Shown here piece after piece: positions 14,888-64,000 of a stretch of DNA of 64,000 bases. Source of the DNA: an uncultured Gammaproteobacteria bacterium. GTDB lineage: Bacteria; Patescibacteriota; Microgenomatia; UBA10105; UBA927. The notes beneath the pieces are model-generated. The model was not told where the DNA came from, did no database searches, and saw only the letters and a program-made list of their open reading frames with translations. The position numbers and the translations under genes were made by a program. The DNA is taken from contig CAZNKB010000005.1 of NCBI GenBank assembly GCA_964573695.1, positions 46,012 to 110,011 on the forward strand, read 5' to 3'. The number at the start of each line of letters is the position of its first letter. The first letter of the stretch is position 1.

Positions 14888-15121
14888 CTAGACTCCCTTG
14901 ATTTCTAACCGTTTGTTTTTCGATTTATGGCCGGAAAGGAGGGTGACGGCATTTTTCTTTATCCCGAAGTGTAAAGCAAGCGCTTCTATCACCGCTTGAT
15001 TAGCTCGGTCTTCTAATGGCGGCGCGTTCACGTACACATGCAGCATGCCGGTCAGGTCTTCTTCTATCCTCGGGCGTTTGTTATTTGGGTGCGTGATGAC
15101 GGAGATAGTCATTTCATCCAC
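14888..15121 (-). CDS. DUF167/YggU-like small protein
   Basis: 77 aa with the pattern V.V.A.P..G.AN.A..E.LA..FG..K..V.LL.G..S..K...I. It overlaps the RuBisCO 3' end by 13 nt. Confidence 0.55.
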   Translation of the reverse strand: MDEMTISVITHPNNKRPRIEEDLTGMLHVYVNAPPLEDRANQAVIEALALHFGIKKNAVTLLSGHKSKNKRLEIKGV

Positions 15122-16368: not shown

Positions 16369-17251
16369 ACCCCGTATCGAATATAAAAGGGTAGTGTTTG
16401 TTTGCGGCTTTTTTGATCTGTTTGCCCGTTAAGATTCCGGCTTCACAGATCACGCGGACATTACTCATGTAAGGCACATAATCGAAAGCAGGTGAATAAA
16501 ATTTAAGTGTTGTCGGCGCTGCTTCCCAAATTTCCTCAGAGCTTCTTGTTTCGATCATCGTAGGAGAAAATGGTGCAGGGTCATACTTGAGGAGCGTCGT
16601 GAGCACGTATACGGGGATATGTTTGCGTTTGGCAGCAGCCGTGACGGCAAGTGAGCCGATTTTGTTTACAAATCCCTTGTCATTTATAAGGTCCGCTCCG
16701 ATAAATACGGCATCTATTTTACCGACACGTCCCTCTATGAGAGAAACAGCCACGTCATCCACAGTCATGATGACGTCGTCAAAGCCGGCAGCCAAAAGTT
16801 CCGAAGCGGTGACTCTTCCTTGGAATCGCGGCCGGGTTTCGGCAACGTACAGAGAGAAATACGCACCCCGTTTTCGCGCGGCTTCAAACAGACGCACCGT
16901 GGTCGAGGAGTGGCAGAGAGTAAGATACACGCCGCCGTCGACTAAGAGTGGCACACCTACTTGCGGGATCGATAGTTTCCCTTTTTCTATATATATTTTG
17001 TATTCGGCGATACGTTTTTTGGCGTCCGCTGTGCATCCGCTGCTCACATACCGGACGGCGTTTTGCGCGAGCGGTTCCGTGGGACGGGCATAGGCCAGTG
17101 CCTCGCCAAGCCTCGTAAGTTCATAGCACGAAATTTCCGGCTGATCTTTGATCGCTTGACTGAGCGCGTCTAGGACGGCGATTGCGACATTGGTCGCTCC
17201 CTGTATCTTGAGGCTTTTGATGTCGGCAAGTATCTGGTCTTGGGGCAGCAT
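16316..17251 (-). CDS. Ribose-1,5-bisphosphate isomerase (eIF-2B alpha/beta/delta-like, e2b2)
   Basis: eIF2B-family fold pattern (GADLI..G.VNKIGS, KIDAVFIGAD). Sits directly upstream of, and overlaps, the RuBisCO gene, the classic AMP-salvage arrangement. Confidence 0.85.
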   Translation of the reverse strand: MLPQDQILADIKSLKIQGATNVAIAVLDALSQAIKDQPEISCYELTRLGEALAYARPTEPLAQNAVRYVSSGCTADAKKRIAEYKIYIEKGKLSIPQVGVPLLVDGGVYLTLCHSSTTVRLFEAARKRGAYFSLYVAETRPRFQGRVTASELLAAGFDDVIMTVDDVAVSLIEGRVGKIDAVFIGADLINDKGFVNKIGSLAVTAAAKRKHIPVYVLTTLLKYDPAPFSPTMIETRSSEEIWEAAPTTLKFYSPAFDYVPYMSNVRVICEAGILTGKQIKKAANKHYPFIFDTGYDRYLHYGKSVYPLSRP

Positions 17252-17920: not shown

Positions 17921-18204
17921 TCAGTGCTTAGCAGGATTATAGGGATTAGATTGAGAAGGGTTAATTGCTTTCTTAGTTTGAATGTCGAATTGTAATCTTG
18001 TTGTTGTCTGATTTGAGATACTAGCGTTAGTACTCCCTTTAATTAATCCAACAACCTGAACACCGCCATCAACTCCTAGATTTTCATTAGCTATTACAGC
18101 TACATCAAATGAATTGTTCCTCTAACGCCAATAACTGAAGGCGACTCTGTTACCGCTTCATCTAAGTCTTTTACAGGTTCCTTAATGAAATTTTTTAGTT
18201 TCAT
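17921..18204 (-). pseudogene. Possible frameshifted small gene remnant
   Basis: ATG at 18204 gives 33 codons to a stop. An adjacent frame then continues for about 60 more codons to a TGA at 17921. Very AT-rich intergenic context. Confidence 0.2.
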
Positions 18205-18268
18205 TTTAGCCTATTAGAATAGTCTAAATGCAATAGTTGACGGTCTGTGAGATAATCTAAATAGGTAT

Positions 18269-18733
18269 ATGAGTAAATCACAACAATTATTATACTATAT
18301 CATTAAACAGAAACGCGTTGTTGAGGATAAGACTAAATTAGCAAAGATACAATATTTTGTTGATTTTATTCATTATGCCTTTCATAGCAATCCGGTATCT
18401 GACGAATCATTAGTTTACACTCGCCAAAAACAGGGTCCTTTGGCAAGGACTTTCGGTCAAGATATAGAGATGTTAAAAGATGCCGGATTTATTAAAGAGA
18501 GTCCGAAATATAATTATCAGGTGGCAAAAGACATTGATACCGATTTGACACCAGAAGAAAAAAAGACCGTTAAATTTGTTCTGAATAAATATGGTCAACT
18601 ATCATATAAGGAACTGATGGATATTTGTCATAATCAGGAACCATATTTATCTACACAGGATGGAGGTATAATTGAATATTTTACGGCATATAACCTCGTA
18701 GATTCATATCCCGATTATGCAGCCGCAAGTTAA
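18269..18733 (+). CDS. Panacea-domain (SocA/DUF4065-like) putative antitoxin
   Basis: KLAKIQYFVDFIHYAFHSNPVSDESLVYTRQKQGPLARTF matches the Panacea pattern (KLQKLLYY...G.pl.......W..GPV). Overlaps the next ORF by 17 nt. Confidence 0.5.
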   Translation: MSKSQQLLYYIIKQKRVVEDKTKLAKIQYFVDFIHYAFHSNPVSDESLVYTRQKQGPLARTFGQDIEMLKDAGFIKESPKYNYQVAKDIDTDLTPEEKKTVKFVLNKYGQLSYKELMDICHNQEPYLSTQDGGIIEYFTAYNLVDSYPDYAAAS

Positions 18734-19148
18734 TGTATGCCCCCGTTTTTGGAGAGATATAAAGGATTTGTATAAACATACAAAATTTCGCTACCTTCAA
18801 ACCACGCTTAATTTAGAACAGTTTGAGAGTTCAGATGATGAGATCAAGCTAAATTCAATACCTTATGTACATGCAATTTCGAATACAATTATTAATAAAT
18901 TGCCTGATAATCTTGATGATATTTCAGATCAATATGATCGTCAACATTTGTTACACCACGGTTGGGTAATTCGAAAAATGAGATACGCTCTTAATAATAA
19001 GGGAAAAAGTGATGGAGTCAGAATAATATTCTGCGTGAATAGTATACATATAATATACGTATATATTAATCAAAAAAATTTATGCGCGGATGAACGAAAG
19101 ATGGAAGCTGAATTCATGTCGAGAATTAATTCGTACCTCAATATTTAG
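18717..19148 (+). CDS. Putative RelE/ParE/HigB-like toxin with an N-terminal extension
   Basis: C-terminal HHGWVIRKMRYALNNKGKSDGVRIIFCVNSIHIIYVYI resembles an mRNA-interferase core (RiiY...v.il.I). Co-oriented with, and overlapping, the Panacea gene. Confidence 0.4.
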   Translation: MQPQVNVCPRFWRDIKDLYKHTKFRYLQTTLNLEQFESSDDEIKLNSIPYVHAISNTIINKLPDNLDDISDQYDRQHLLHHGWVIRKMRYALNNKGKSDGVRIIFCVNSIHIIYVYINQKNLCADERKMEAEFMSRINSYLNI

Positions 19149-19182
19149 TTGTTAATAGACTTCAAGAGTTATAATACCCCTT

Positions 19183-19995
19183 ATGCCTATCATTATTGCT
19201 ATAGTTGCTTACGCAATTTTATTCATCAGTGGCACTGCAGTCTCATACAACCTACCAAAACCCACTCCTGCTCCAACACTAATTTCATCACCTACAACAA
19301 TACAGCTACCGGTGACTCCCATCCACACAATAGCAGATCGTAAACTAAACAAAGTATTAAAAGTTATAGACGGTGACACAGTCAATGTTGAAATTGGGGG
19401 AAAAAGCCAGACAATACGGCTTATTGGTATAGATTCTCCCGAAACTGTTGATCCTAGAAAACCTGTGCAGTGCTTTGGTAAAGAAGCTTCAAATAAAGCA
19501 AAAGAGTTACTTACTGAGAAAAGTGTAAATCTTGAAGCTGATCCAACTCAGGGAGATAAAGACAAGTATGATCGGTTACTTCGATATATTTATTTAGAAA
19601 ATGGGATGAGTGTAAACAAATACATGATTAGTGAAGGGTATGCTCACGAATACACCTATCAAAATAATCCGTATAAATATCAGGCTGAATATATCAGAGC
19701 TGAACAATCGGCAAGAGAGGGTAAGAAAGGTTTATGGGCGGACAATGCGTGTCTCACACCCACGCCTACGATAAAACCTGCATCAGTGCAGATAATTTCT
19801 ACGATCAATCCTACTGTCGCAACGTATGTTCAGCCTGTGACGCAGCCAAATACAGGTAGTTATTCATGTAACTGTAGTAGAAACTGTGATGCAATAGCTT
19901 CTTGTGAAGAGGCATATTTTCAACTTAACCAATGTGGATGTTCAAAAAGAGATGGTGATAGCGATGGAGTGCCTTGTGAAAGTATTTGTAATTAA
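19183..19995 (+). CDS. Membrane-anchored secreted thermonuclease (SNase-like) with a C-terminal Excalibur calcium-binding domain
   Basis: N-terminal TM segment and Pro/Thr linker. SNase core (VIDGDTV...IRLIGIDSPE...RLLRYIY...GYA). Excalibur motif DGDSDGVPCE in a Cys-rich tail. Confidence 0.8.
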   Translation: MPIIIAIVAYAILFISGTAVSYNLPKPTPAPTLISSPTTIQLPVTPIHTIADRKLNKVLKVIDGDTVNVEIGGKSQTIRLIGIDSPETVDPRKPVQCFGKEASNKAKELLTEKSVNLEADPTQGDKDKYDRLLRYIYLENGMSVNKYMISEGYAHEYTYQNNPYKYQAEYIRAEQSAREGKKGLWADNACLTPTPTIKPASVQIISTINPTVATYVQPVTQPNTGSYSCNCSRNCDAIASCEEAYFQLNQCGCSKRDGDSDGVPCESICN

Positions 19996-20201
19996 GTGAA
20001 TAGATCCGCAAGCGTTACGCCCAATGCGTGAGCGATTTTATATGCAGTTTTAATTGAGATATTTCTTCCATTCTCAATATCCCAGAAATACGCTCTATGT
20101 AGCCCTGCTTTCTCAGCTAATTCTTCCTGAGTAATTCCTTTTTGGCGACGTAATTTCTCAATTTTCTCTCCAAATTTACGGTAAAGTGGATCGTAGTTCA
20201 T
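19992..20201 (-). CDS. XRE-family helix-turn-helix transcriptional regulator
   Basis: 69 aa with LRRQKGITQEELAEKAGLHRAYFWDIENGRNISIKTAYKIAHALGV. Confidence 0.85.
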   Translation of the reverse strand: MNYDPLYRKFGEKIEKLRRQKGITQEELAEKAGLHRAYFWDIENGRNISIKTAYKIAHALGVTLADLFT

Positions 20202-20305
20202 AGCTACATATCAGAGTAGCTACTTACCAGACATTTCTTTACCAGATATATCTAGCTTTTTTTATGGTTTGGGTTATACTTACGGTTAGTATAAAGATTT
20301 ATAAT

Positions 20306-21394
20306 ATGAAACGAAAAAGTGATAACAAATCTAAACCTTCAAACTCACGTATTTCAATTTGGGTAATTATAACTTGCATAATATTAGCAAGCATGTTAAT
20401 TGGAAAGTATTTATTCGATCAGATTCAACTTATTAGTCTTAATCGATCATTTCTACGGGCAACAAGTCTAATTACCTCCAGAAATTTCAAAGACCTATAT
20501 GATGAATTTGAGCCCACTACTGCTGCAGTAAAGATAAGTGAAGAAAAATATATTGCAAATTACGAACGCATGCAAATTCCGGCGAAAATTGAACGAATAA
20601 TTCATAAAACTTATTTAGCAGGAGACAACGGGGGTTATATTGACGCAACCTCCATTATATGTCTAATCGATACATGTCCTCCAAAATATAGATTTGAGAT
20701 ACGAAAAACATATATCATGCGAAAAATAAATAACAAGTGGAAATATTTAGGAGAAAATAACAGCCTAATTGCAACATGTGAAAGAAACAAACCCTTTATT
20801 ATTCCAACTGAATTCAGAAACAGTATTGATCTAATTGTTGAAAGATTAAATTCATCTAATACTGATTACAATGAAGTAAATTCACTCAACAAGACGAAAG
20901 CAAATGAAATTTTAAAATTTATAAACTGCCTTGATATTCAATATGCGGAAACTGATTCTTTGATAGATAACTCGGAGGGTGTATTTAACCTCATAGCTAA
21001 TCCATTTAATCAACGTTACTTAATAGAAGTTTCGCCAAGATATAAAAATTCGGACACATTAATAACATCGCTATTACTCAGGCATGAAATCGAGCACGCA
21101 CTGTCATTCTATAATTTTATGTCTGGAATGAATTTAGATAAGGCATATACAGAAGATAATTGTTATGGTGATGAAGCAAAAGCATTCTTATCTGGAATTC
21201 TATTTTTTGGTGCACTTAAAAATGAAGAAAGGAGCTGGTTAAAGTCAAAATATAATTCTTCTATTGAAATACAAGGATTTTTTGATACTTATAACGCCAT
21301 AAATGGTTATCCGGGCGAACATGTTGAAGATCAGGTGCTAAATTTTGTACGTAGTCAACCCGTTTATCAAGAGCAATGCATGGGTCGAAATTGA
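20306..21394 (+). CDS. Hypothetical membrane-anchored protein with an HExxH motif (possible metallopeptidase)
   Basis: N-terminal TM segment. LLLRHEIEHALSF zinc-binding-like motif. Divergent from the XRE gene. Start taken at MKRKSD (20306); the ORF track starts at 20264. Confidence 0.45.
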   Translation: MKRKSDNKSKPSNSRISIWVIITCIILASMLIGKYLFDQIQLISLNRSFLRATSLITSRNFKDLYDEFEPTTAAVKISEEKYIANYERMQIPAKIERIIHKTYLAGDNGGYIDATSIICLIDTCPPKYRFEIRKTYIMRKINNKWKYLGENNSLIATCERNKPFIIPTEFRNSIDLIVERLNSSNTDYNEVNSLNKTKANEILKFINCLDIQYAETDSLIDNSEGVFNLIANPFNQRYLIEVSPRYKNSDTLITSLLLRHEIEHALSFYNFMSGMNLDKAYTEDNCYGDEAKAFLSGILFFGALKNEERSWLKSKYNSSIEIQGFFDTYNAINGYPGEHVEDQVLNFVRSQPVYQEQCMGRN

Positions 21395-21527
21395 TCATTA
21401 GTATAACTTGAAGCAAGTATAACCCCTTCTTCAAATATTAGCTACATATAGGGGTATAGGTATATATATTCCGGTAGCACTTACCCCTAAAGTTATAGAA
21501 CCTGTCTGAAGTCGGTAAAATATAGGT

Positions 21528-21968
21528 ATGGATAGCCAACTATATACTCAAGATGTGAATCTCCGTCAACGAATGTTCCTACAATCCTACTTAGAGTCGG
21601 GAAATGCTACTAAAGCATATATGGAAGCATATAAAGTGTCTGAAAAACATCGTGCTACAGCCTCTGTATTGGCTTCTAGGCTTGTTAGAAAGGTTAAGGA
21701 TTCGTTCATACTTCTTCTTGAAAAAAATGGTTTAGATGACAAGGCTGTAATTGACGTATTAAAGGGTGCTTTGAGGGCGAATAGACAACAAGTCTATCAT
21801 AGTAAAGTGTACGAATTTCCAGATTATTATGCTCGTATGAAAGCAATAGAATTGTTGGCAAAACTAACAGGTCGCACATCGAAAGAGGATATATCAATGA
21901 ATCAAATGAATATACAGATTATTTCTGATAAAGAAAAGGGTGTATTTAAAATAATTTCAGATGACTAA
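21528..21968 (+). CDS. Phage terminase small subunit (Terminase_2-like)
   Basis: RQRMFLQSYLESGNATKAYMEAYKVSEKHRATASVLASRLVRK, an HTH-type TerS N-terminus. No large terminase or structural genes are nearby. Confidence 0.5.
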   Translation: MDSQLYTQDVNLRQRMFLQSYLESGNATKAYMEAYKVSEKHRATASVLASRLVRKVKDSFILLLEKNGLDDKAVIDVLKGALRANRQQVYHSKVYEFPDYYARMKAIELLAKLTGRTSKEDISMNQMNIQIISDKEKGVFKIISDD

Positions 21969-22010
21969 ATTTTGAATTAGAGCGCTATAATAGTATTTGT
22001 AAGCAAGGAG

Positions 22011-22409
22011 ATGAATATGAAAATGGATAAGCCACGACACTTTGTTGAGTTGATGGAAAAAATGGTTAAGAGAGATGAGGTTTTGCGATTAGGAGAAATT
22101 ACACAGAAGCGAATCAAGCACGTTTTGAAAAAGAAGACGTTTATATCATCGTTAATAAGTAAATTTCCTAAAAAGCAGAAGAAATTGCTATTGTCACTGG
22201 CTGACGGACATTCGAAAGATCGTAAGGAGCTAATGCGATTGGTAGGTACAACGAATCTAAAGAGTCTTGTGAGAGATACACGGCTGACAATTAAGAAGTT
22301 TGGTTATCGTCAATTATTAATTATCAAAGTAACGAAGGGGACAGGTTCGCTCCCAAAGTATTACTATTCATTAATAGCCACAATGGTAGCGCCTACCTCT
22401 GATAAGTAG
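22011..22409 (+). CDS. Hypothetical basic protein (island)
   Basis: 132-aa ORF. No domain recognised. Confidence 0.35.
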   Translation: MNMKMDKPRHFVELMEKMVKRDEVLRLGEITQKRIKHVLKKKTFISSLISKFPKKQKKLLLSLADGHSKDRKELMRLVGTTNLKSLVRDTRLTIKKFGYRQLLIIKVTKGTGSLPKYYYSLIATMVAPTSDK

Positions 22410-22569
22410 TCATAAATTTTATCAGCTTCAAAAACGCACCTCTAGTAACCAAATAACGCACTAGCAAAATAATTGACTCCAAAGTTTGCCTCAAAAACGC
22501 ACCGGTCTTTTTTGCTGGACTGAACGTTTGCGTTGTTAAATAGCTCTATAGATAAACAGAGATATTGAC

Positions 22570-22821
22570 ATGCATATGGACACACTACCAGTAAAGGATT
22601 TATCTTTAGCCTCATATTTAAGTGTTTGTGCTGATATTAGGCTACTAAGAACTGAAAGGAATAGCTCAGGGAGTGTAATTTTCCATTTTTCCCCATTAGA
22701 ACGATCCCAGCAATTAGTTTCGGATTATTGGTCCGATAAAGCTCCGTCAATCCAACCTAGAAGGCTTTTGAGTGCCTTGCGTGATCTTAAGGAGCTAATT
22801 TTTTCCGGAGGGAATTTATGA
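22570..22821 (+). CDS. Small phage-associated protein (DUF5659-like, tentative)
   Basis: Pattern DLSLASYLSVCADIRLLRTERNSSGSVIFHFSPLE...LKELI resembles DUF5659 proteins. Confidence 0.35.
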   Translation: MHMDTLPVKDLSLASYLSVCADIRLLRTERNSSGSVIFHFSPLERSQQLVSDYWSDKAPSIQPRRLLSALRDLKELIFSGGNL

Positions 22822-22974
22822 AAACTCCTGACGGTTTGAAAGTTAGGAAGCTGCTTTCGGTTAAATATGCGTTTGTCGATTACGAACAATTAGACCGTCA
22901 GAAGAGGCTAGACGACGCATTTGATGTGATATTTGATGAGATAGAAATTGATGATACAGAGCGTATCAACAATA

Positions 22975-23550
22975 AATATGAATATGAACAGCGCGCGTTT
23001 ATCAAAAGATGATGTAATCCGGCGGATTGAACAACTTGGAGGCACGTATGATCCTGAATCCGCACTACCACTAGAAGATCAGCTCATGATCTGTGAATCC
23101 CTAGTTCAATCAACGCCTGTAGACCCTAATGATGAAGATGGGAAAATCATACTAAAGTTAAAAGAAGAAGAGAACAAACGAAATGGTAGTGTTAATGGGA
23201 GTGTTAATGGTATAGGAAAACGACAAGAAAACGTAGACGAAACGAATAAGAAAAAACAAGCAATCATTGAATTAACGACATTTAATTACCGGACAAGCCC
23301 AAAGAAAATTGCATTACAACTTCAAATAGTGTTTTCAATGTATCCGAGCAAGGAGGGTCATTGGTTATATATTGCTCAGCACTATACCCCCAAATCCATT
23401 AATTGTGTTATTCATCAAATGACTAAAACGCACGTTGAAGGATGGCAAACGATAAAAAATCCTTCAAGCTACTTTACAGACGTGTTGAAGCAATATCATC
23501 CAATGAGGAAACATAAAAGAAGTGTGAGCAGGACTATTGACAAAATATGA
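22975..23550 (+). CDS. Hypothetical protein (island)
   Basis: ORF of about 190 aa with a GSVNGSVNG repeat. The start is uncertain (22948 or 22975). Confidence 0.35.
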   Translation, partial: NMNMNSARLSKDDVIRRIEQLGGTYDPESALPLEDQLMICESLVQSTPVDPNDEDGKIILKLKEEENKRNGSVNGSVNGIGKRQENVDETNKKKQAIIELTTFNYRTSPKKIALQLQIVFSMYPSKEGHWLYIAQHYTPKSINCVIHQMTKTHVEGWQTIKNPSSYFTDVLKQYHPMRKHKRSVSRTIDKI

Positions 23551-23571
23551 ATATGGGTATACTATGGACAT

Positions 23572-23994
23572 ATGAATAATATGACTAACTATATGACAAT
23601 TCAACAGGTTGCGAATGAACTTGGTGTTTCTACTAAAACTTTACGTAGATGGGATGAAAAGAAGCTTCTTATACCCGAAAGACAGGGTACTACAAATATA
23701 AGGTTATATCATACTTGGCTAGTGGGATATTGGAAGAAATATCTTGAGCTGGATAGAGCATTAAAAGCACATTTGGCTTTATTAGGGGAAGTTCGTAGAG
23801 AGCTGGAAAAATATATAGTTACGAAACCGTTGGGCACTGGACCAACAAAGATGTTTGACAGTAAAGCATTTATTGAAGCACATAAGGCAATGGAAACATG
23901 GGAAAAGGGTTTTGATCGCTTATGGCGAGAGTTAGCAGATTATCCTCCATTTATGCATCAAGCTAGGGGTAATTCTGAAGGAGAAGATCTATGA
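23572..23994 (+). CDS. MerR-family HTH protein (excisionase/recombination-directionality-factor candidate)
   Basis: MTIQQVANELGVSTKTLRRWDEKKLLIPER. Its stop overlaps the serine recombinase start (ATGA). Confidence 0.65.
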   Translation: MNNMTNYMTIQQVANELGVSTKTLRRWDEKKLLIPERQGTTNIRLYHTWLVGYWKKYLELDRALKAHLALLGEVRRELEKYIVTKPLGTGPTKMFDSKAFIEAHKAMETWEKGFDRLWRELADYPPFMHQARGNSEGEDL

Positions 23995-25604
23995 GGATAG
24001 CTCTCTATGCTCGTGTTTCGTCACAGCGTCAAGAAGTTGAAGAAACGATAGAAACTCAAATAATGGCAATTAAAGATTTCCTGAAGGTCAATAACCACGC
24101 TTTAGTACAAGAGTACAGGGATGATGGGTGGAGTGGCACAATTTTAGCCCGTCCCGCACTTGATCAGCTTCGCTTAGATGCTACAAAAAAGCTTTGGGAA
24201 GCAGTAGTGGTGTATGATCCTGATCGACTTTCTCGTAAGTACGCACATCAAGAACTTATACGTGATGAACTAGAAGGTCGTGGGATAAAAGTATTATTTG
24301 TTACAACTCCACCCGTGAGAGATGAAGGGGATAGGTTGTTATATGGAGTAAAAGGACTATTTGCCGAGTACGAACGGTCTAAGATTGCAGAACGATTTAG
24401 GTTAGGGAAGATTCGAAAGGCACGAGAGGGGCACGTAGTGACCTCACAAGCCCCGTATGGATATGCATATATACCAAAACAGGGTGAAATGCATGGATAT
24501 TTTGAACCAATATCAGAAGAAGCTCGAGTTGTACGAGACATCTTCGATTGGGTAGGTAATAAAGGGTTGACTATTCGAAAGGTTATAAAGAAATTACAGG
24601 AACAAAATATATCGCCTCGTAAAAGCAGGCGTGGAGTGTGGAATAATAGTACACTCACGACACTTCTTCGAAATGAAACGTATTACGGAAAAGCGCATTA
24701 CAACAAGACAATCGGAATAATTCCGACTAAACCTAAGAATACAGAGAAATATAAACGGATTGTTAAAAGTAGTAGGAAAAATAAGCCGGAATCAGATTGG
24801 ATATATATTGAGTGTAAACAGATTATTGAGAGAGAATTGTTCGATAGAGTACAAAAGCAGTTAAGGATAAATTTTGAACGGTGTGTTCGTAATAAAAAGA
24901 ATGAGTATTTGCTCGGTAATATTATCCGGTGTACGTGTGGGGCAACAAGAACAGGGGAAGGACCACAGCGTGGGAAGCACCTTTATTATCGTTGTTCGGG
25001 TAGGGTGAATCGGTATCCCATGCCCCCATCTTGTTTAGAAAAGGGTATAAATGCTCGAATAGCTGATGCGATGGTTTGGGATAGCGTGAAACGCCTTATG
25101 GTATCCCCGCAGTTACTTAGGAGACAGGTCGCTCGATATTTTGATCGTAAATCACAAGCTGTCGATCATTCTCTGGATATCGCATCGATACAGCAGGATA
25201 TATCGAAGTTAGATATTGAAGAAGAACGGTATACGAAAGCATATGGCAAGCAGGTCATTACGTTAGCTCAATTAACTTCGTATATTCAGGATATCCGGCT
25301 GAAACGTACGACACTAGAACAGAAACTAACCGAATATTCAAAAGAACAACGGCTTTTACCATTTGCCAAGCCCACGGATAAACAGATAGAATCATTCTGT
25401 CAAAAGGCAAAAGAGAAATTAGAATCTTGTGGCTACGAGCAGAAGAGACGAATAGTATTAAATGTTATAAACAATATCGTTGCAAGTGAAAAAGAGGTGC
25501 AAGTTTTCGGATTTCTACCGATAACTGAAGCTAATTATGTCAAGTTCTGGTCTGAAAGTCGGTATCGTAGGGCTACCCAACGCAGGCAAAAGCACGTTAT
25601 TTAA
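23991..25604 (+). CDS. Large serine recombinase/integrase
   Basis: Resolvase catalytic domain (MRIALYARVSSQRQ, nucleophile Ser), recombinase domain and a Cys-rich zinc-ribbon (CTCGATR...RCSGR). The 3' end overlaps ychF by 68 nt. Confidence 0.95.
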   Translation: MRIALYARVSSQRQEVEETIETQIMAIKDFLKVNNHALVQEYRDDGWSGTILARPALDQLRLDATKKLWEAVVVYDPDRLSRKYAHQELIRDELEGRGIKVLFVTTPPVRDEGDRLLYGVKGLFAEYERSKIAERFRLGKIRKAREGHVVTSQAPYGYAYIPKQGEMHGYFEPISEEARVVRDIFDWVGNKGLTIRKVIKKLQEQNISPRKSRRGVWNNSTLTTLLRNETYYGKAHYNKTIGIIPTKPKNTEKYKRIVKSSRKNKPESDWIYIECKQIIERELFDRVQKQLRINFERCVRNKKNEYLLGNIIRCTCGATRTGEGPQRGKHLYYRCSGRVNRYPMPPSCLEKGINARIADAMVWDSVKRLMVSPQLLRRQVARYFDRKSQAVDHSLDIASIQQDISKLDIEEERYTKAYGKQVITLAQLTSYIQDIRLKRTTLEQKLTEYSKEQRLLPFAKPTDKQIESFCQKAKEKLESCGYEQKRRIVLNVINNIVASEKEVQVFGFLPITEANYVKFWSESRYRRATQRRQKHVI

Positions 25605-40680: not shown

Positions 40681-40824
40681 ATTGATAAACGATTATTGCC
40701 GAGGTGGCACTGCGGTCGTTGCCGCAGCACAACAGGATATTGATAAACGATTATTGCCGAGGTGGCACTGCGGTCGTTGCCGCAGCACAACAGGATATTG
40801 ATAAACGATTATTGCCGAGGTGGC
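40681..40824. repeat. 58-bp tandem repeat, two full copies plus a partial third that is the real tRNA 5' end
   Basis: Copies at 40681-40738 and 40739-40796 are identical by eye. Each unit is 17 bp of upstream sequence, then GCCGAGGTGGC (tRNA positions 1-11), then a 30-nt hairpin segment (CTGCGGtcgttgCCGCAG). Confidence 0.8.
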
Positions 40825-40901
40825 GGAATGGCAGACGCTCAGGTCTCAAAAACCTGTGAGGTTAACCCCTCGTGGAGGTTCGACTCCTCTCCTCGGCACC
40901 A
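40814..40901 (+). tRNA. tRNA-Leu (anticodon CAA), class II with a long variable arm and encoded CCA
   Basis: 7-bp acceptor stem (GCCGAGG/CCTCGGC). 3-bp D stem. Anticodon stem CAGGT/ACCTG with loop CTCAAAA. T arm GGAGGTTCGACTCCTCT. Discriminator A followed by CCA. Confidence 0.85.
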
Positions 40902-40927
40902 AGGTGTTATGATATAGTGAAGCATAT

Positions 40928-51281: not shown

Positions 51282-51305
51282 TTTTTGTCATACAATAGGG
51301 GAGAC

Positions 51306-52145
51306 ATGCCAAAGAAATTGTTAACTTCCATTACAAAGCGGTTCCAACGCTGGGAACGCACGCAACCGTTTACCAAGCGTCAGCAGTTTGTCATCATAAC
51401 CGGATTATTGACCGGAGTGCTCATGCTTACGCAGCTGGTTTCATTGGATTTTCGCTATCCTATGGTAGGTGTGTTGGCGGTGTTGAGTTATCTTTTGTGT
51501 GCGTTTGCGTTGCGTGATGATCTTCGCGGTCACGAATGGTTCACGCTGCTTATTTTGCCGTCTTTTTTTACGGCGGCTGTTGCGGTGTTTTATTTTTTGT
51601 TACCGACCCGTTGGTTGACCCGGCTTCCGATCGTCGTACTCTATGCCATTGGCATGTATGCGTTGCTCCTAACCGAAAATATTTATAATGTGGCTGCAGC
51701 ACGGACGATTGCACTTCTTCGCGCTGCACACTCGGTGGGGTTTTTGCTCACGCTTGCGACATTTTTCCTACTGTCCCAGACGATTTTGGCCTATCGTTTT
51801 TCCGGATGGTTTAGCGCCTTGCTTATGGGGATCGTGACGTATCCTTTGACTATACAAATATTGTGGGCTACCAATTTGGAATCACAAATAGGGAAGTCTA
51901 TAAAGGAAATAACGCTTGTCGTGAGTATTATCCTTATAGAGTTGGCTTGGGTTTTTTCATTTCTTCCCGTCAGGACGACTCTTCTCGCATTGTTTCTTAC
52001 GACCGTCTTTTATGGTCTCGTGGGCATGGGCCAGCAGTACCTCGCAGATCGACTTTACAAACGGACAGTCTGGGAATTCTTCGGCGTTGTTGCAATCGTA
52101 TTTGTGATTTTGTTGTTAACAATTAATTGGCGATCCGCCATATAA
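51306..52145 (+). CDS. Hypothetical polytopic membrane protein
   Basis: About eight TM helices. SD GGGAGA upstream of the ATG at 51306. Confidence 0.45.
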   Translation: MPKKLLTSITKRFQRWERTQPFTKRQQFVIITGLLTGVLMLTQLVSLDFRYPMVGVLAVLSYLLCAFALRDDLRGHEWFTLLILPSFFTAAVAVFYFLLPTRWLTRLPIVVLYAIGMYALLLTENIYNVAAARTIALLRAAHSVGFLLTLATFFLLSQTILAYRFSGWFSALLMGIVTYPLTIQILWATNLESQIGKSIKEITLVVSIILIELAWVFSFLPVRTTLLALFLTTVFYGLVGMGQQYLADRLYKRTVWEFFGVVAIVFVILLLTINWRSAI

Positions 52146-53366
52146 GTTTCAAAGAGGTGCAAAACACGGGGACCTGCCTCGCCGGCAAGGCGGAGTGGGA
52201 GAGTGGTATAGTTTGATATAGTTGATATAGTTTGATATATGTCGGTAAAACTATAGGGTATAATGTGGATAATTATTTTCACGGCGTCCGACAAGTATTT
52301 TCACAGCCTCACCGCAAGCTGGCCACAGCCTGCATGAGGCTAAACTATAGGGTAGAGTAAGTCTTGGGTCCTTCGCACTCGCTTCTTTGAGTACACAAAG
52401 TGTGCGATAAAATGACTATTCGGATTGTTGTAACGCGCTAAATACGATATATCAATACGTCCGGAGTAGTGAATAGCAGCCTCAAATATACGAGTTTGGA
52501 GCATAATACGGCGCTAAATAAAGCCGAAAAGCAAACAAGCTTAGCAGTACTGTTACGTAAACGCTAACATTAGCCTCATATGACGCCGGGAAGCGGATAG
52601 AATACGCACGAAATGCTGTAAGCGGGGCGTTATCATGCTCCATTCTCGTTTTTCACAAGCGGCAATAATATATACATGCAGCCTTGAAAATAGTGATTTG
52701 GAGCGTATGAATGCTCTAAATTGCAACGTCTCCGGCAATCGGACATGCAGCGGAGTGGGATATTAGCCTCAAAAATGTGTAATTAGCGCATTAATACGCG
52801 CTAACTGTGTATAGCATAAAAAACCCGAATGCCCGTTGAGAAGACGCAGGTAATGCTGCGCATTTTTCGTCTTGGGCAGAGCACAGGATTTGTAACGTCT
52901 GCTAGCCTCACTTCAGGGGTGTTACGAGGAGAGGGGTCGCATTCTCCTCCGGGGGTGCCACCGTGGTTTTTTTATCCCTGTTTCGGCCTCAAGTGTTTTC
53001 TGGTTGATTCACGGCGGGGAAGAAAAATCACTATAGTCGCACAATAATACTTTTGCGACGTTAGTATCAGGCATGTGCCTGAATAGGACTTTTGTTGTCG
53101 CGTCGTTGTTCTTGTATTGTTTAAGCAAATTGTATGCGATTGTCGTGCAGTTATTTTTTTTGGCGCTTCGCTATTCTCCTTTGGATTTGGTCGCGTTTTT
53201 TTTGGATCTCCTATGGCAACGATTAGACCTGTTTATAGGGTTACGTATTGTTACTTTTCCGGTCCTACGGGCCGTATTGATTTGTGCGGTTTGGTTGAGA
53301 CGTCTACTTGTACGTCTTTTCGTAATCAGGGGCCTTGTAGGTCAGTACAGGGGCAGGAATTTGAGG
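52146..53366. other. ORF-poor 1.2 kb region with degenerate ~200-bp tandem units and recurring TTAGCCTCA/CGCTAAAT motifs; candidate non-coding RNA locus
   Basis: No convincing ORF on either strand. Related 44-nt segments at 52476-52519 and 52678-52721, period 202 bp. AGCCTCA motif at 52305, 52335(rc), 52478, 52572, 52765, 52904 and 53362(rc). TATAAT at 52259-52264. 7-bp hairpin 52926-52949 followed by T7 at 52967-52973. Confidence 0.45.
52207..52240. repeat. Short tandem repeat (TATAGTTTGA TATAGTTGA TATAGTTTGA TATAT)
   Basis: About 3.5 copies of a 9-10 bp unit immediately upstream of the promoter-like TATAAT. Confidence 0.6.
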
Positions 53367-54065
53367 CTAAATCGATCGAAACAGATACTGGCCCAAAATC
53401 ACGGTTTTTGAGGGGCTGGCGCCGGCATTCATCTGTACTAAGGAGACATTGGTTGCTGTAAAAGATCCAATCATCAGATCTTTCATAGTCGTGAGTTTTT
53501 CGATAAATTCCGGCGACGGTTTATGGGTATACCGGCAAATCGTTATATTGGCAAAAATGATTTCATCGGTAAAGTATTTTTTGTCATCGGGCACATGGGC
53601 GTCAACAAGTTTGTTGCGGAGCTTTTTGACGAATTGGTCATATTCGGGGCTTACGAGTGCAATAATGGAAACACTCGTGGGCATACTGAGGAGTCCGGCA
53701 AGGGTAAATTGGAATGGTTCTGATGACGGTATTTCTTCGGCCAATACACGTTGCGCTTTGGCTATATCTGACGCGCCAAAATGTGGCGGATTGTTGATGA
53801 CCCTGATATTTTGGATAGTAAGATGCAGCGCATTATCAGGGTAATAATAAAATTCAGGTTCTATGATTTGAAGCGGCTGAATAAGTTGAGTTTGGATTGT
53901 CGCAGTAAGATTTTTGTCTATAAAACTAATGCATGTTAATGCGATTTGTGGATCGTTCACATAATCCGTTTGCATAGGGACAATGGTTGACGCGTGAGCG
54001 CCATTGGCGAGAGTTGCCTCCATTTGGCGCATCAGATTAAGCTGTTTCTGTTGAAAAGGAGTCAC
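53367..54065 (-). CDS. 2H-phosphoesterase-superfamily-like protein (LigT-like, tentative)
   Basis: First H-x-T-x motif present (HLTIQ). At the expected second motif the sequence reads ANITICR, with Asn in place of His. Confidence 0.3.
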   Translation of the reverse strand: MTPFQQKQLNLMRQMEATLANGAHASTIVPMQTDYVNDPQIALTCISFIDKNLTATIQTQLIQPLQIIEPEFYYYPDNALHLTIQNIRVINNPPHFGASDIAKAQRVLAEEIPSSEPFQFTLAGLLSMPTSVSIIALVSPEYDQFVKKLRNKLVDAHVPDDKKYFTDEIIFANITICRYTHKPSPEFIEKLTTMKDLMIGSFTATNVSLVQMNAGASPSKTVILGQYLFRSI

Positions 54066-54129
54066 TATATCATTCTAGCATATTGACAATACTAATCATG
54101 TCGTACAATGATTGTTGTAGAGACGTCTT

Positions 54130-55116
54130 ATGGATTTAGACCAACTGATCAAAGATTTCCTGGAATATCTTGAAATTGAGCGAAATGTTTCGCAATTAAC
54201 AATCCGGAACTACCGGCATTATTTGGAGCGATTTGTGCGCTTTTTAGCGCATACCGGAGCCCCCTCCCCTACTAGTCCCCCCTCCGTGTCTGGCGAAGCC
54301 GGATCCCGCTTCGCGGGAAAAACTGTGAATATAACCGATATTCATCCAGAATCCATCCGTCAATATCGGTTGTATCTGTCCCGTTTCGTCGATGAAAAAG
54401 GGATGAGCCTCAAACGCGTGACTCAAAATTATCACCTGATCGCACTTCGGAGTTTTCTTAAGTATATGGCTAAACGCGACATCCCGACTATTTCTCCGGA
54501 CAAAATCGATCTGCCGAAAGCAGAAAGCAGGTCGATTAAATTTTTGGAACACAATGACATGGAACGTTTGTTGAATATGCCTGAAATCAGTACCAAAGAA
54601 GGGTTACGGGACAAAGCGATACTGGAGGTATTATTTTCTACCGGACTTCGGGTATCGGAACTCGTGAGTTTGAACCGCGATCAGATTAATTTGGACCGCC
54701 GGGAGTTTAGTGTCGTCGGCAAAGGCCGTCGTACCCGCATTGTATTTTTATCCGAGCGCGCGGCTGATTGGTTACGCCGATATATCGCGACCCGGGAAGA
54801 TGATCTCCGGCCAATATTTATCCGCTATAGTGGAAAAACCCCCGACGAACATGACACTACGGGCGAATCGATCAGACTGACTGCGCGCTCTGTCCAGCGC
54901 GGCGTCGAGAAATACGTCAAAAAAGCAAAGCTGATGATCAAAATTACGCCGCACGGACTTCGCCATACATTTGCAACCGATCTCTTGGGCAATGGTGCAG
55001 ACTTGCGGGCTATTCAGGAATTGTTGGGGCACAAAAATGTGTCGACCACCCAGATTTACACGCACATTACTAATCCGCAGCTTAAAGAAATTCACGACAA
55101 ATTTCATAGCAAATAA
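54130..55116 (+). CDS. xerC: Tyrosine recombinase XerC/XerD-like
   Basis: N-terminal SAM-like domain with a Pro/Ser-rich insertion. Catalytic R...HxxR...Y (HGLRHTFATDLL, LGHKNVSTTQIYTH). Confidence 0.85.
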   Translation: MDLDQLIKDFLEYLEIERNVSQLTIRNYRHYLERFVRFLAHTGAPSPTSPPSVSGEAGSRFAGKTVNITDIHPESIRQYRLYLSRFVDEKGMSLKRVTQNYHLIALRSFLKYMAKRDIPTISPDKIDLPKAESRSIKFLEHNDMERLLNMPEISTKEGLRDKAILEVLFSTGLRVSELVSLNRDQINLDRREFSVVGKGRRTRIVFLSERAADWLRRYIATREDDLRPIFIRYSGKTPDEHDTTGESIRLTARSVQRGVEKYVKKAKLMIKITPHGLRHTFATDLLGNGADLRAIQELLGHKNVSTTQIYTHITNPQLKEIHDKFHSK

Positions 55117-59680: not shown

Positions 59681-62203
59681 TTATTTGGTGAGGCAGGTGG
59701 CGGCAGCGATCGTATCGTTTTTATCCGTAAATCGCATCAGGATGACCCCGCTCGTCGCTCTCGAGAGCTGCGGGATCGATTTCATAGGGAGTTTGACGAC
59801 CTGGCCTTTGGTTGAGGTGAGGATGACTTCCTCGCTTCCCTCCGGAACCATTTGGGACAATACGATTTTTCCGGTTCTCGGTTTGATTTCTGCGACCTTC
59901 ACTCCCTGCCCGCCACGTTTCTGTTTGGGGAATCCCGTTATGTTCGTTTTCTTTCCAAGGCCTTTTTCCATAAGCGTGAGGAAGTCGGCTTTCTTGTTTT
60001 CGCTTCCGATAACCTCCATGGCCACAGCATAATCACCGGGTTTGAGCAAAATCCCCCGTACTCCCATGGTATCTCTGCCGGTGTGGCGCACTTCGTTTTC
60101 GCTAAAACGGATCGACTTACCTTCGTGCGTGACGAGCAGCACATCGTCATTGCCGCTTGTTAACTTTGCCCAAATCAGTTCATCGCCGGCATCGAGTTTA
60201 ATGGATAATAATCCGTTCCGCCGGATATTTTCGAATTGGGAAAGCTTCGTCTTTTTGACCACGCCTTTTTTGGTAGCCATGAGGATATATTCCAATCCTT
60301 TTTCCTTTTGCTCCGTGCGTTTCAAGCTGTAAGAAAGCATGGAAGTGACTTTTTCCGAGCTTTCTATATTGATGAGGTTGACGACCGCTTGTCCTTTGCT
60401 CTGTCGGCTTGCTTCCGGGATATCCCAGACTCGGACCTGGTAGACTTTGCCTTTTTCGGTGAAAAAGAGCATGTTGTCGTGCGTTTGTGCTGACAGCAGA
60501 CGGTCAATGGCGTCTTCTTCTTTGGTGGTCATGCCGATCACTCCCTTGCCGCCGCGCTCCTGAAGTTTAAACGTACTGCGGGGTACCCGCTTGATGTATC
60601 CGGTTTCCGTCATGGTGATAATCGTCTCTTCGTTCGGGATCAACTGTTCGTCGGAGAGTTCGCCCACGCGGCTTTTGTACACGCGGGTACGTCTGTTATC
60701 GCCATATTTTTCCTTAAGCTTGGTGAGTTCTTCTTTGATTACTTTGAGTATTTTTTCCGGGTGCGCCAACAAATCATTGAGGTAGGATATCGTTTCCCGG
60801 ATCATAGCAAGCTCGTCTTCGATTTTCTGGCGCTCAAGAGCAGCGAGTTTCCGCAGTTGCATATCCAAAATAGCTGTCGCCTGGATATCGGAAAGCTTAA
60901 ATCTGGCCATGAGTTTTTGTTTCGCTTCATCGGCGTCTTTGGCCTTTTTGATGATAGAAATGACTTCATCGATATGATCGACGGCAATCTTGAGACCCTC
61001 CAAGATATGTTCGCGGGCTTTTGCCTCTTTGAGTTCGAATTCACTTCTTCGGTATATGACGTCATGCCGGTGCTTCAAGTATTCCTCCAGAATTTCGCGA
61101 AGCGTGAGCGTCCGAGGTGTGCCGTCGACTAATGCGACGACATTGACCGGGAAGGTTGATTGCAGCTCGGTAAACTTATATAAATTATTGAGTACTTTAT
61201 TCGGCTGTGCGTCGCGTTTGAGTTCGACGACCACCCGAATGCCGCGGCGATCAGATTCATCGCGCAAGTCGGAAATGCCGTCGAGTTTTTTGTCTTTTAC
61301 AAGATCCGCGATTTTGATGACGAGATTGGCTTTGTTTACCTGGTATGGGAGCTCGGTAATGGCAATCATGCTTTTGCCGTTGCCCATTTCTTCGATTTCT
61401 GCCTTGCCCCGCATTACGATTTTACCTCTGCCAGTGGCGTACGCGTTTCTGATTTCGTTCACGTCATAAATCGCTCCCGCAGTCGGAAAATCAGGCCCCT
61501 GTACGTATTGCATGAGGTCCTCAAGCGAGACGTCAAACGTCATGCCAAAGCGTTTGCTTTCCCCGACGTCGTTTTGGGTGGCAACCCCTTTTTTGTCGAT
61601 CGTTGCTTTGCTGATCATAAATATGATCGCATCGACGAGTTCGGACAAATTATGCGGCGGGATTTTTGTAGCCATACCGACGGCGATTCCCTCACTTCCC
61701 ATAAGCAGCAGGTTGGGCAATTTGGCCGGCAGATAGACAGGTTCTGCGATTGATCCGTCGAAGTTCGGTATGAAATCGACCGTTTCCTTCTCGATATCCA
61801 GAAGCATTTCATCGGCGATAGAATCCAAACGGCACTCCGTGTACCGCATGGCAGCCGGCGGATCTCCGTCGATACTACCGAAGTTGCCCTGCCCGTCCAC
61901 CAAGGTGTACCGCATGGAAAAATCCTGCGCCAATCTCACTAATGCTTCGTAGACAGAGGAGTCCCCGTGCGGGTGGTATTTGCCCAGGACTTCTCCGACT
62001 ACGGTAGCGCTTTTTTTGTATTTGCCGCTGTGATGAAGGCCCGTCTGATGCATTGCAAACAAAATCCTCCGATGTACCGGTTTTAATCCGTCACGTGCGT
62101 CGGGGAGAGCGCGAGCCACGATGACGGACATCGCATAGTCCATGTAGGACTTTTGCATTTCCTCGACGATCTCACTAGGTTGGATTTTGCCAATGGCTGC
62201 CAT
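59681..62203 (-). CDS. gyrA: DNA gyrase subunit A
   Basis: AAMRYTE active-site region, QRGG-type motifs, and C-terminal beta-pinwheel repeats. Confidence 0.95.
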
Positions 62204-62206
62204 AGG

Positions 62207-62725
62207 TTATGTGTGCGCAATGCCGTCCATGATTTCTTTTTGGGCGACTGATTTCCCCTTCCACTCCTTGAGTTTGACCCATTTGCCGGGTTCAAGTTCT
62301 TTATAGTGTTCAAAGAAATGTTTGATTTTTGCTTTGGTGGGTTCCGGAATGTCGCTCAGGTCCTTCATCGCGCCGTATATCGGGTCAGATTTTTCGCTTG
62401 GGACGGCTATGACTTTCATATCAATGCCGGATTCGTCTTCCATTTCGAGCATGGCAATCGGGATGACGTTTACCATGACGCCGGGATAAAGCGGTTGGCT
62501 ACAAAGCACTATGACATCGACCGGATCCCCGTCTCCGGACTTCGTGTTCGGAACAAATCCGTAATTTGCCGGATATCCCATGGTGGTCCGGACAAACCGG
62601 TCAACCATGATCACTTCGGCTTCTTTGTCCATTTCGTATTTCACCATGCATCCCTCGGGAATTTCGATGATGACATTTATGTCTTCTGGCGGATTTTTTC
62701 CTGGTGTAATGGTTGATAGTTTCAT
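62207..62725 (-). CDS. ppa: Inorganic pyrophosphatase (family I)
   Basis: [10 protein letters not shown] and the acidic metal-binding cluster. 172 aa. Confidence 0.95.
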
Positions 62726-62749
62726 AAGTTTCCTCCTTTATGAGAGAAA

Positions 62750-64000
<1,251 letters not shown>

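Follow-up and report, generated by a model that had tools for sequence, protein, structure and literature searches.

The interval 52146-53366 lies in a 64,000-nucleotide (nt) stretch of contig CAZNKB010000005.1, the whole of which is called the window here, and is flanked on its left by a gene for a DUF5656 membrane protein (51285-52145, +) and on its right by a reverse-strand gene with a weak 2H / 2'-5' RNA-ligase-like match (53367-54065, -; the 2H gene). Beyond the 2H gene follows a gene for a 328-amino-acid (aa) Xer-family tyrosine recombinase (54130-55116, +; Pfam Phage_integrase, E = 1e-43). A preliminary description, made from the letters of the window, had proposed that the interval is a decayed tandem array of a ~200-nt unit and a candidate structured noncoding RNA (ncRNA). 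The best-supported reading of our comparisons is that it forms a single, vertically inherited non-coding locus which appears to be tied to the downstream Xer-family gene, and its conserved parts are best read as short DNA motifs at fixed spacing, not as RNA helices. The conserved locus extends slightly beyond 53366: its tail motif, TTTGAGGCTAAAT, occupies 53360-53372, and the 2H gene ends within that motif, its stop codon reading CTA on the + strand (53367-69).

As the preliminary description had held, the interval contains no credible open reading frame (ORF). Its longest internal ORFs, of 112 and 114 aa, belong to no Pfam family, and no ORF is conserved in relatives across the region. Stops occur in all six frames in 46 orthologous copies of the first repeat unit (unit 1, described below), which are conserved without a 3-nt pattern, and a pseudogene spanning the region is excluded on these grounds. 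Two smaller coding candidates were also rejected: ORFs of at most 132 aa that follow the 26-bp repeat described below are not kept even between close relatives, and a leaderless mini-ORF at ATG/GTG-TGGATAA meets stops or loses its start codon in several loci, with variation that is not codon-like. With the flanking DUF5656 protein we retrieved 59 loci, nearly all of them from metagenome-assembled genomes, of groundwater and sediment origin, of Candidatus Gottesmanbacteria or other Microgenomates-type members of the candidate phyla radiation (CPR). In closed relatives the locus lies at 925-938 kb of 1.218 Mb (JAHFKK010000001.1), 990-1003 kb of 1.223 Mb (CAWBPL010000002.1) and 107-120 kb of 1.020 Mb (MFJV01000001.1). 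A blastn search with the 1.2-kb interval found homologous DNA directly 3' of the DUF5656 gene in most of these loci (for example, 74% identity over 902 nt in L006), so that the lack of conservation which the preliminary description had named as telling against a functional element was not observed.

In every case the locus lies between the DUF5656 gene and an Xer-family tyrosine-recombinase gene, the latter always downstream and on the + strand, and more distant relatives keep a reduced form of the locus. A metagenome scan with the Xer protein added 80 loci. The protein is 60-91% identical across nearly all loci and 50-52% identical in the outgroups L057 and L058. The XerC, XerD and XerA models all match it, each below the equivalog cut-off, and by sequence it matches the structures of XerD and XerA. 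Because the Xer gene directly abuts the locus in eight lineages (L008, L016, L029, L030, L040, L043, L050, and L058), the reverse-strand 2H gene that separates the two here, and the TIM-barrel gene found there elsewhere, are later insertions.

The order of elements is nearly constant across loci. A purine block comes first, followed by one to four copies of TGATATAGTTTGATA, by GTGGATAAT about 39 nt on, by a pair of TTTCAC motifs and by copies of AGCCTC; then come unit 1, further units built of dyad-symmetric boxes, CATAAAAAACCCGAA, ~200 nt of variable sequence, a 26-bp inverted repeat (the 26-mer), ~285 nt of T-rich variable sequence, TAGGTCA, and an inverted AGCCTC. Between the stop codon of the DUF5656 gene and the 26-mer lie 526 to 1138 nt, a range that reflects how many units a locus has. 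In the distant, low-GC loci L097 (2090-2960) and L104 (1830-2990) the modules are kept in a permuted order and the box units are absent; both retain the purine block, CCTATAAT, the TTTCAC pair, TGATATAGT plus TGTGGATAAC, an identical 26-mer, and GTCGCACAAT at the Xer promoter. The minimal locus of outgroup L058 holds one promoter-like CTATAGTTTGA, one TTTTCACG, one box and AAAAAACCCGAAAG, then a repeat of the 26-mer type. Two smaller features were noted in passing. In L097 and L104 a purine stretch after the DnaA-like box is, by eye, complementary to a pyrimidine stretch just 5' of the 26-mer, and L040 (7990-8060) and the equivalent part of L043 carry a second, inverted TTTCAC-22-nt-TTTCAC pair and AGCCTC 3' of the 26-mer, which gives the locus a partial mirror symmetry.

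The 26-mer (GTCGCACAATAATACTTTTGCGACGT, 53036-53061) is a near-invariant 9-6-9 inverted repeat, GTCGCACAA-TAATAC-TTTTGCGAC-GT, and a candidate Xer core-type site or operator. It is unique in the window, exact in 17 genomes and present with at most three mismatches in 46 of the 59 loci, and its identity is still 96-100% in loci whose flanking protein has fallen to ~50%. Among the 89 loci with at least 1.7 kb of upstream sequence, 67 carry it upstream of Xer, at a distance of 164-3665 nt (median 1175), and it is retained where Xer is only 56-60% identical and box units are undetectable. Outgroup L058 has GTCGTAAAT-TGTTTC-TTTTACGAC some 100 nt before Xer, with the arms and the 6-bp spacing kept and the centre changed. 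The cores of Xer/dif modules consist of two inverted arms of ~9-11 bp around a 6-8 bp centre (11 bp in difSL), a layout that the 26-mer shares, and as in single-recombinase modules an Xer-family recombinase is encoded in linkage with the site.

A second inverted repeat of the 26-mer type overlies the Xer promoter (54083-54127, +; from sequence comparison), where TTGACA (54083-88) is followed after 11 nt by GTCGTACAAT (54100-09), GATTG and TTGTAGAGAC (54115-24). The pattern across loci is TTGACA, 11 nt, GTCG[C/T]ACAAT and an imperfect inverted partner, as in the GTCGTACAAT-TATAGA-TTGTAACGAC of L002. This arm motif is the same as that of the 26-mer (GTCGCACAA / TTTTGCGAC), and of 115 distinct loci, 60 have GTCG[CT]A[CA]A[AT] in the 100 nt that precede the Xer start, where ~2 would be expected. 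The linkage pattern agrees with a core-type site for a tyrosine recombinase, or with an operator to which that protein binds.

It is also conceivable that the 26-mer and the box array are operators of ordinary transcription factors that act on the internal and Xer promoters, with no recombination involved. The arm motif of the 26-mer overlaps the -10 element of the Xer promoter, a -10-like TATAGT or TATAAT stands directly 5' of the 26-mer in many loci, and the dyad-symmetric boxes resemble operators for helix-turn-helix dimers. However, all 26 bp, including the 6-bp centre, are near-invariant across the whole class, which is unusual for an operator, and no regulator gene is conserved next to the locus. 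Conservation of the 26-mer also outlasted the insertion of a reverse-strand gene that separates it from Xer, and we consider operators of this kind quite unlikely.

Several of the repeats seen in the preliminary description were recovered, some with corrections. AGCCTCA or its complement occurs 13 times in the window (5.4 expected) and seven times within 52305-53368 (~0.1 expected), so that the enrichment is real and the earlier count of six copies is one short; the first copy and an inverted one lie at 52305-11 and 52335-41. The repeated CGCTAA(A/C)T words are present, with GCKCTAAAT found three times in the window and only in this region, and CGCTAAAT-type words are likewise confined to it. 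The two 44-nt segments at 52476 and 52678 do lie 202 bp apart and are 70% identical, and a third copy at 52763 is 64% identical. Internal similarity is nevertheless weak, the best self-BLAST match within the window having E = 0.001. Tandem repeat units are thus real and evolutionarily maintained, but they measure ~105-150 nt, not ~200 nt, and the window holds 2.5 of them.

Each unit has two 25-bp dyad-symmetric boxes ~76 bp apart, of the form TTTAGCGCATTAATACGCGCTAAA with the half-site TTTAG[A/C]GC, plus AGCCTCA. Unit 1 (52380-52532, +; nhmmer E = 8e-37), for which the alignment of 46 orthologues shows no conserved pairing, comprises the palindrome TTGAGTACACAAAGTGTGCG (52387-52406), box L (52419-52443), a 33-nt spacer, AGCCTCA (52478-84), box R (52495-52519), and AGCCGAAA (52522-29). 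Among orthologues the spacer is fixed in length and variable in sequence, and the order across loci is GAGTACACAATGTGTGCG, box L, 33-nt spacer, AGCCTCAAAAAT, box R, and AACCGAAA. A half box, ACGCTAAC, plus TTAGCCTCA stands between units 1 and 2 (52553-52581, +; from sequence and motif counts). Unit 2 (52607-52726, +; nhmmer E = 2e-16; 44-nt repeat family D1) has box L at 52620-52644, AGCCTTG at 52680-86, box R at 52697-52721, and then TTGCAACGTC (52722-31), which resembles one arm of the 26-mer. The partial unit 3 (52755-52831, +; nhmmer E = 5e-11) has AGCCTCA at 52765-71, the best dyad-symmetric box, AATTAGCGCATTAATACGCGCTAACT, at 52781-52806, and the motif CATAAAAAACCCGAATG that ends the array at 52815-31; ATAAAAAACCCGAA is nearly invariant in close relatives.

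A unit profile built from 52380-52535 of the window matched two to five times per locus on the + strand, and it also matched itself on the - strand because each unit holds two dyad-symmetric boxes. All of its 254 matches in 60 genomes fall inside the locus, with none in ~700 kb of flanks, the sequence searched amounting to ~760 kb. From genome to genome the individual boxes remain distinguishable by sequence, a sign of sequence-specific constraint instead of lost function; the array, as its sequences indicate, is not decayed, contrary to what had been proposed. AGCCTC copies across loci are often 10-11 bp apart, and their orientation varies: after the TTTCAC pair, at orthologous positions, the motif is forward in 24 cases and inverted in 14, and in the tail it reads TAGCCTCA in L014 versus TGAGGCTA in L002. 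As a separate observation, AA/TT dinucleotides in the array show an 11-bp periodicity, but its z of ~15 against mononucleotide shuffles is overstated by the homology of the loci, and with so naive a shuffle control the signal is not counted as evidence.

Dispersed repeats of the repetitive extragenic palindromic (REP) or miniature inverted-repeat transposable element (MITE) kind were rejected on the finding that none of the 254 unit matches lies outside the locus. An array of clustered regularly interspaced short palindromic repeats (CRISPR) was likewise rejected, the boxes being only 64-70% alike in the window and the spacers orthologous and drifting by point mutation. More broadly, the internal repeats, the inverted repeats and the nearby tyrosine recombinase gene might suggest a remnant of a mobile element, a MITE, a CRISPR-like or integron cassette array, or else a decayed pseudogene. 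Against such an origin, stops occur in all frames of the 46 orthologues without a 3-nt pattern of conservation, and the units occur nowhere else in ~760 kb. The 26-mer also had no match in 2.9 million viral contigs, scanned for Xer-exploiting elements. Synteny is stable, every box retains its identity across the whole class, and the spacers are not acquired sequences. We regard a remnant of any of these kinds as scarcely credible.

The proposal of a structured ncRNA array was not borne out by searches for conserved RNA structure. No standard RNA family had been recognised by eye, and the Rfam scan called for at the time agrees with that impression: in the window a tRNA was the sole match at the gathering score, 52000-53500 gave no match at E <= 10, and 11 homologous loci gave none. 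On the 46 orthologous unit-1 copies RNAalifold predicted no pairs. Averaged pair probabilities gave one recurrent helix, of box L with box R, at a mean of 0.3-0.45 across these orthologues, but column composition alone accounts for it (78.4% paired versus 78.2% in column shuffles, with 206 of 500 shuffles as good; covariation score 0.172 versus 0.166). For the local box hairpins, 496 of 500 shuffles pair better than the real alignment. The stem of the 26-mer shows no covariation, its sole variable pair being CG in 31 sequences, UG in 4, UA in 2, and unpaired in 10 (229-281/500 shuffles). The covariation check across relatives that had been suggested therefore favoured neither the box L/box R helix, nor the box hairpins, nor the 26-mer stem over its controls.

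Folding energies tell a similar story. Over 97 units the mean is -25.4 kcal/mol on the + strand versus -25.7 kcal/mol on the - strand, with 43 of the 97 favouring + (p = 0.54). Units can form long hairpins, and unit 2 reaches -37.1 kcal/mol on the + strand (z = -2.4), although unit 1 is not significant (z = -1.4). The idea that structured small RNAs stand in tandem here, or that a single structured regulatory RNA folds once per ~200-nt unit, could draw on that hairpin and on the pair probabilities of the box L/box R helix. With that helix explained by composition, no pairs from RNAalifold, no + strand advantage and no Rfam family, we find either form very unlikely. At the degenerate position of the half-sites, the left side (A/C) and the right side (G/T) vary independently of each other, 33 of 46 sequences being unpaired at columns 122-135, which is expected of two protein half-sites on duplex DNA and is the opposite of an RNA stem. 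Motif inversions, permuted modules and spacers of fixed length but free sequence also point to recognition of duplex DNA.

At its left end the locus opens with the purine-rich block GGCGGAGTGGGAGAGTGG (52188-52205), and a GGGAGAG-type block is found here in most loci, including L097 and L104. Next comes a cluster of three extended -10 motifs (52204-52240, +; detected as a 10-nt tandem repeat by TRF), with TGGTATAGT at 52204 and TGATATAGT at 52214 and 52223. The 9-10 bp tandem repeat noted in the preliminary description at 52207-52240 is this element, with a 10-nt unit in 3.4 copies (52207-52239). TGATATAGT fits the extended -10 element TGnTAnnnT, and within 240 nt of the DUF5656 stop 55 of 60 loci carry the motif on the + strand and none carries it on the opposite one, over a background of 0.27 per kb with both strands counted. 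The promoter-like TATAAT pointed out earlier is indeed present at 52259-52264, but it is not conserved, and the conserved element is TGATATAGT.

The same motif marks gene starts elsewhere. In its generalised form 9 of its 13 copies in the window are intergenic, where ~18% of the window is intergenic, and one copy precedes the start of gene 40928 by 18 nt, while another stands where the 2H gene starts. Of 166 off-target copies, 29% are followed within 60 nt by the first start codon of an ORF that is 100 aa or longer, compared with 4.8% for random positions. The distance from motif to start codon peaks sharply at 6-10 nt across all loci, which suggests that leaderless mRNAs are common in these CPR genomes. 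TGATATAGT-type motifs before start codons were also seen at 40910-40918 (+) and 54064-54072 (-). The copy at 54072 runs into the GTG annotated as the start of the 2H gene, so this start has probably been assigned wrongly. From its motifs, the locus has a conserved promoter in fixed orientation, as an independent transcription unit would; a rightward promoter at 52204-52231 is likely, and the + strand transcription suggested earlier is plausible.

To the right of the promoter cluster lies AAACTATAGGGTA (52248-52260, +), which contains the -10-like CTATAGG and is repeated exactly at 52342-52354 (family D5). It is followed by the DnaA-box-like element TGTGGATAATTATTTTCACGG (52264-52305), with the only perfect DnaA-box-like 9-mer of the window. 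This 9-mer belongs to an imperfect palindrome, with TGTGGATAA as the candidate DnaA-binding sequence, and a second TTTTCAC lies 22 nt on. AAAACTATAGG / CCTATAAT is conserved 5' of the element, and nearly every locus retains GTGGATAAT with TTTCACG at +12 and TTTCACR at +22.

Between the array and the 26-mer is a poorly conserved spacer (52832-53035) with few blastn matches, in which RNAalifold gave only -3.8 kcal/mol over 447 columns for the 3' half in 12 close relatives. It contains the GAGGAGA/TCTCCTC hairpin (52926-49), the T7 run (52967-73), and the purine block GGGGAAGAAAAA just before the 26-mer. The hairpin and T run are thus where the preliminary description had placed them, but they do not form a conserved terminator, and a terminator search of both strands in 48 loci found none recurring at a fixed position. 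After the 26-mer comes a T-rich spacer (53062-53296, +), of roughly constant length and without sequence conservation or a conserved ORF. The tail was located in 15 close relatives, and in 14 of them it lies 281-305 nt from the 26-mer, the exception being L008 with 179 nt. A 9-bp periodicity of AA/TT was also observed in this spacer over 46 loci, and its z of ~12 against mononucleotide shuffles is overstated for the same reason as in the array. The tail block (53297-53372) is conserved in different reading frames across close relatives and comprises a hairpin, AGACGT..ACGTCT, plus TTTT (53297-53320), TAGGTCA (53338-44) and the inverted TTTGAGGCTAAAT. TAGGTCA followed 24 nt on by an inverted AGCCTC motif is recurrent across loci.

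A promoter at this position raises the possibility of one long (~0.6-1.1 kb) ncRNA, or two, running rightward from the extended -10 motifs. The units would then be sequence-specific protein-binding motifs, as opposed to helices, of a sponge- or scaffold-like RNA that works through its motifs without needing a fold, and the 26-mer would lie inside it or at its end, or would start a second, U-rich transcript. The motif's restriction to the + strand and its use at gene starts elsewhere agree with such a transcript, and because the locus in the window lies between convergent genes, the promoter there can serve an internal transcript only. Strand asymmetry is conserved: of 34 loci, 30 have an array that is A-rich on the + strand, and the stretch that follows the 26-mer is T-rich, with an AT skew of -0.23 that is negative in 33 of 34. 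In relatives, by eye, the hairpin plus TTTT at 53297-53320 tolerates G-U pairs on the + strand only, and genomes differ in how many units they have, a trait shared with sponge RNAs of the CsrB type. On the other hand, neither the window's locus nor 11 relatives have an Rfam match, and neither a helix nor a terminator is conserved. Motifs occur in either orientation at orthologous positions, so that an RNA would carry the complement of its sequence in some genomes, and the degeneracy of the box half-sites is mirror-symmetric, as for a dimer on duplex DNA. We consider a long ncRNA the main rival of the interpretation favoured below and possible, though it falls well short of probable.

We also considered the locus as the chromosomal oriC or a classical terminus dif region. 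An Xer gene lies next to it, a perfect DnaA box stands beside AT-rich 10-mer repeats, conserved blocks are separated by fixed-length spacers as in enterobacterial oriC, and the genes on either side point towards it. When GC skew in the window was fitted gene by gene, its replication-related part was of +0.067, with the best single breakpoint at 54 kb (step -0.058). This hint was lost once the right flank was extended by 10 kb in two relatives, and the skew is positive on both sides, at +0.067 on the left versus +0.055 and +0.035 on the right (20 kb, two relatives). The absence of a sign change over ~85 kb argues against both a replication origin and a classical terminus dif site, and the GC-skew switch at which Xer/dif sites of the terminus lie was not found here. 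Moreover, the 1.2 kb hold one DnaA-type box at no more than one mismatch, with no cluster of the kind seen in oriC, and neither dnaA nor dnaN was seen in the window or beyond gyrB. An origin or a classical terminus region is, in our judgement, highly improbable. A location at the terminus is not required for FtsK-independent systems such as archaeal XerA.

Among known systems, the locus would best be placed with recombinase genes that have a core-type site linked to them, and its conserved flank is unusually large for that group. In Streptococcus/Lactococcus XerS/difSL and Helicobacter XerH/difH, too, an Xer gene is linked to a short imperfect inverted repeat conserved in the lineage, and xerS and difSL act "as a single module" (PMC5357621). 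The site described here differs in that it is unrelated in sequence, usually lies ~1 kb from Xer instead of directly adjacent to it, is not at a GC-skew switch, and is embedded in 0.5-1.1 kb of further conserved motifs. By eye, it has no TTATGT-type XerD arm in comparison with the sites in PMC5357621 and with E. coli dif. For the box array and the T-rich spacer the nearest parallel is the accessory DNA of cer of ColE1 and psi of pSC101, in which a ~30-bp core is flanked by long conserved non-coding DNA; cer has a 30-bp core and ~180 bp of accessory DNA bound by PepA and ArgR, and the arrangement is terminus-independent (PMC5357621). The flank here is 0.4-0.9 kb, its motifs are unrelated, the setting is chromosomal and not a plasmid, and any accessory role would be by analogy.

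Other likenesses can be drawn. Enterobacterial-type oriC also combines short blocks, free-sequence spacers of conserved length and a DnaA-type box by AT-rich tandem repeats, but here the DnaA box is single, the skew does not change sign, and dnaA and dnaN are not nearby. OLE RNA and the CsrB/RsmZ RNAs share with this locus a long ORF-free stretch, an own promoter and a variable number of repeat units, and OLE has a membrane partner, OapA, as the present locus lies directly 3' of a conserved membrane-protein gene. Those RNAs have covarying stems and Rfam entries, whereas no helix is supported here and no Rfam match was found. F-plasmid sopC also consists of regularly spaced tandem units, each with a short inverted repeat for a dimeric protein; the units here, in contrast, are heterogeneous and each keeps its own sequence, and no ParA- or ParB-type genes are nearby.

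The interpretation that we favour is that of a transcribed, Xer-linked nucleoprotein DNA locus, made up of a core-type site plus accessory binding-site units. We put it forward tentatively, and short of an even chance, from the sequence comparisons above. Under it, the extended -10 cluster at 52204-52231 would fire rightward, and the adjacent DnaA-box-like palindrome may control it. The repeat units, whose number would have grown through tandem duplication in Gottesmanbacteria, would bind an array of dimeric and other DNA-binding proteins. The 26-mer at 53036-53061 would serve the neighbouring Xer protein as a core-type site, whether a dif-like recombination site or an operator, and the same-arm inverted repeat over the Xer promoter may allow autoregulation. 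The box array and the T-rich spacer would then be accessory or architectural DNA around the core, like the accessory sequences of cer and psi or the arms of attP.

Several points weigh against this interpretation. The box and AGCCTCA motifs differ from the arms of the 26-mer, and proteins other than Xer would be needed to bind them; extra half-sites of the 26-mer are not enriched in the array after discounting the 26-mer itself. The rightward promoter, the A-rich + strand of the array and the T-rich segment downstream are strand-specific and fit an RNA no less well. Absent covariation is a negative finding, and it comes from sequences related by descent. The 26-mer carries a -10-like CACAAT and could be simply a promoter or operator, and the skew of the same sign on both sides makes an FtsK-guided terminus dif unlikely. 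A more specific form of the Xer-linked interpretation would make the locus a chromosomal, terminus-independent Xer resolution site. In that form the 26-bp core and the 0.4-0.9-kb accessory array would act class-wide as a topological filter of the cer/psi type, coupled to a promoter with a DnaA-type box; this we consider rather doubtful.

Other parts of the window and of its relatives yielded observations unrelated to the locus. At 40683-40901 a ~57-bp unit (ATTGATAAACGATTATTGCCGAGGTGGCACTGCGGTCGTTGCCGCAGCACAACAGGAT) is repeated ~2.3 times directly 5' of tRNA-Leu(CAA) and runs into the tRNA; each copy repeats the 5' end of the tRNA (GCCGAGGTGGC), like partial tRNA duplications or an integration scar. 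A low-GC island at ~18000-24000 and 23991-25604 (33-38% versus ~48%), probably represents a mobile element that has integrated, and it has genes for a SocA/Panacea antitoxin-like protein, a large serine recombinase and a secreted staphylococcal nuclease (SNase)-type nuclease. A RuBisCO large-subunit-like gene adjoins an IF-2B-family (ribose-1,5-bisphosphate isomerase-like) gene at 15109-17251 (-), a pair that we take to be typical of the CPR nucleotide-salvage pathway. At 59681-63988 gyrB and gyrA are separated by a soluble pyrophosphatase, and in relative L061 by a membrane H+-pyrophosphatase; beyond gyrB, L060 and L061 have a DNA polymerase III delta' gene and a type IV pilus/type II secretion system (T2SS) cluster.

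A search of the available literature library for CPR dif sites, CPR origins and Gottesmanbacteria intergenic elements returned no papers, and the element is described neither there nor in Rfam. The CPR, or Patescibacteria, have tiny genomes with very little non-coding DNA, and an ORF-free locus of 0.5-1.2 kb that is kept class-wide is therefore likely to be important; its 26-bp element is more conserved than the flanking proteins. The motif map offers targets for follow-up in the TGATATAGT promoters, the TTTAG[A/C]GC boxes, AGCCTCA and the 26-mer, and it provides a usable promoter motif for leaderless genes of these uncultured bacteria. If the locus makes a long RNA, it would represent a new large ncRNA class without conventional structure. 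If it is an Xer site with accessory DNA, it would show chromosome-dimer resolution or Xer regulation away from the terminus, and a topological filter, if that is what the array forms, would be a previously undescribed control of chromosome-dimer resolution in ultra-small bacteria.

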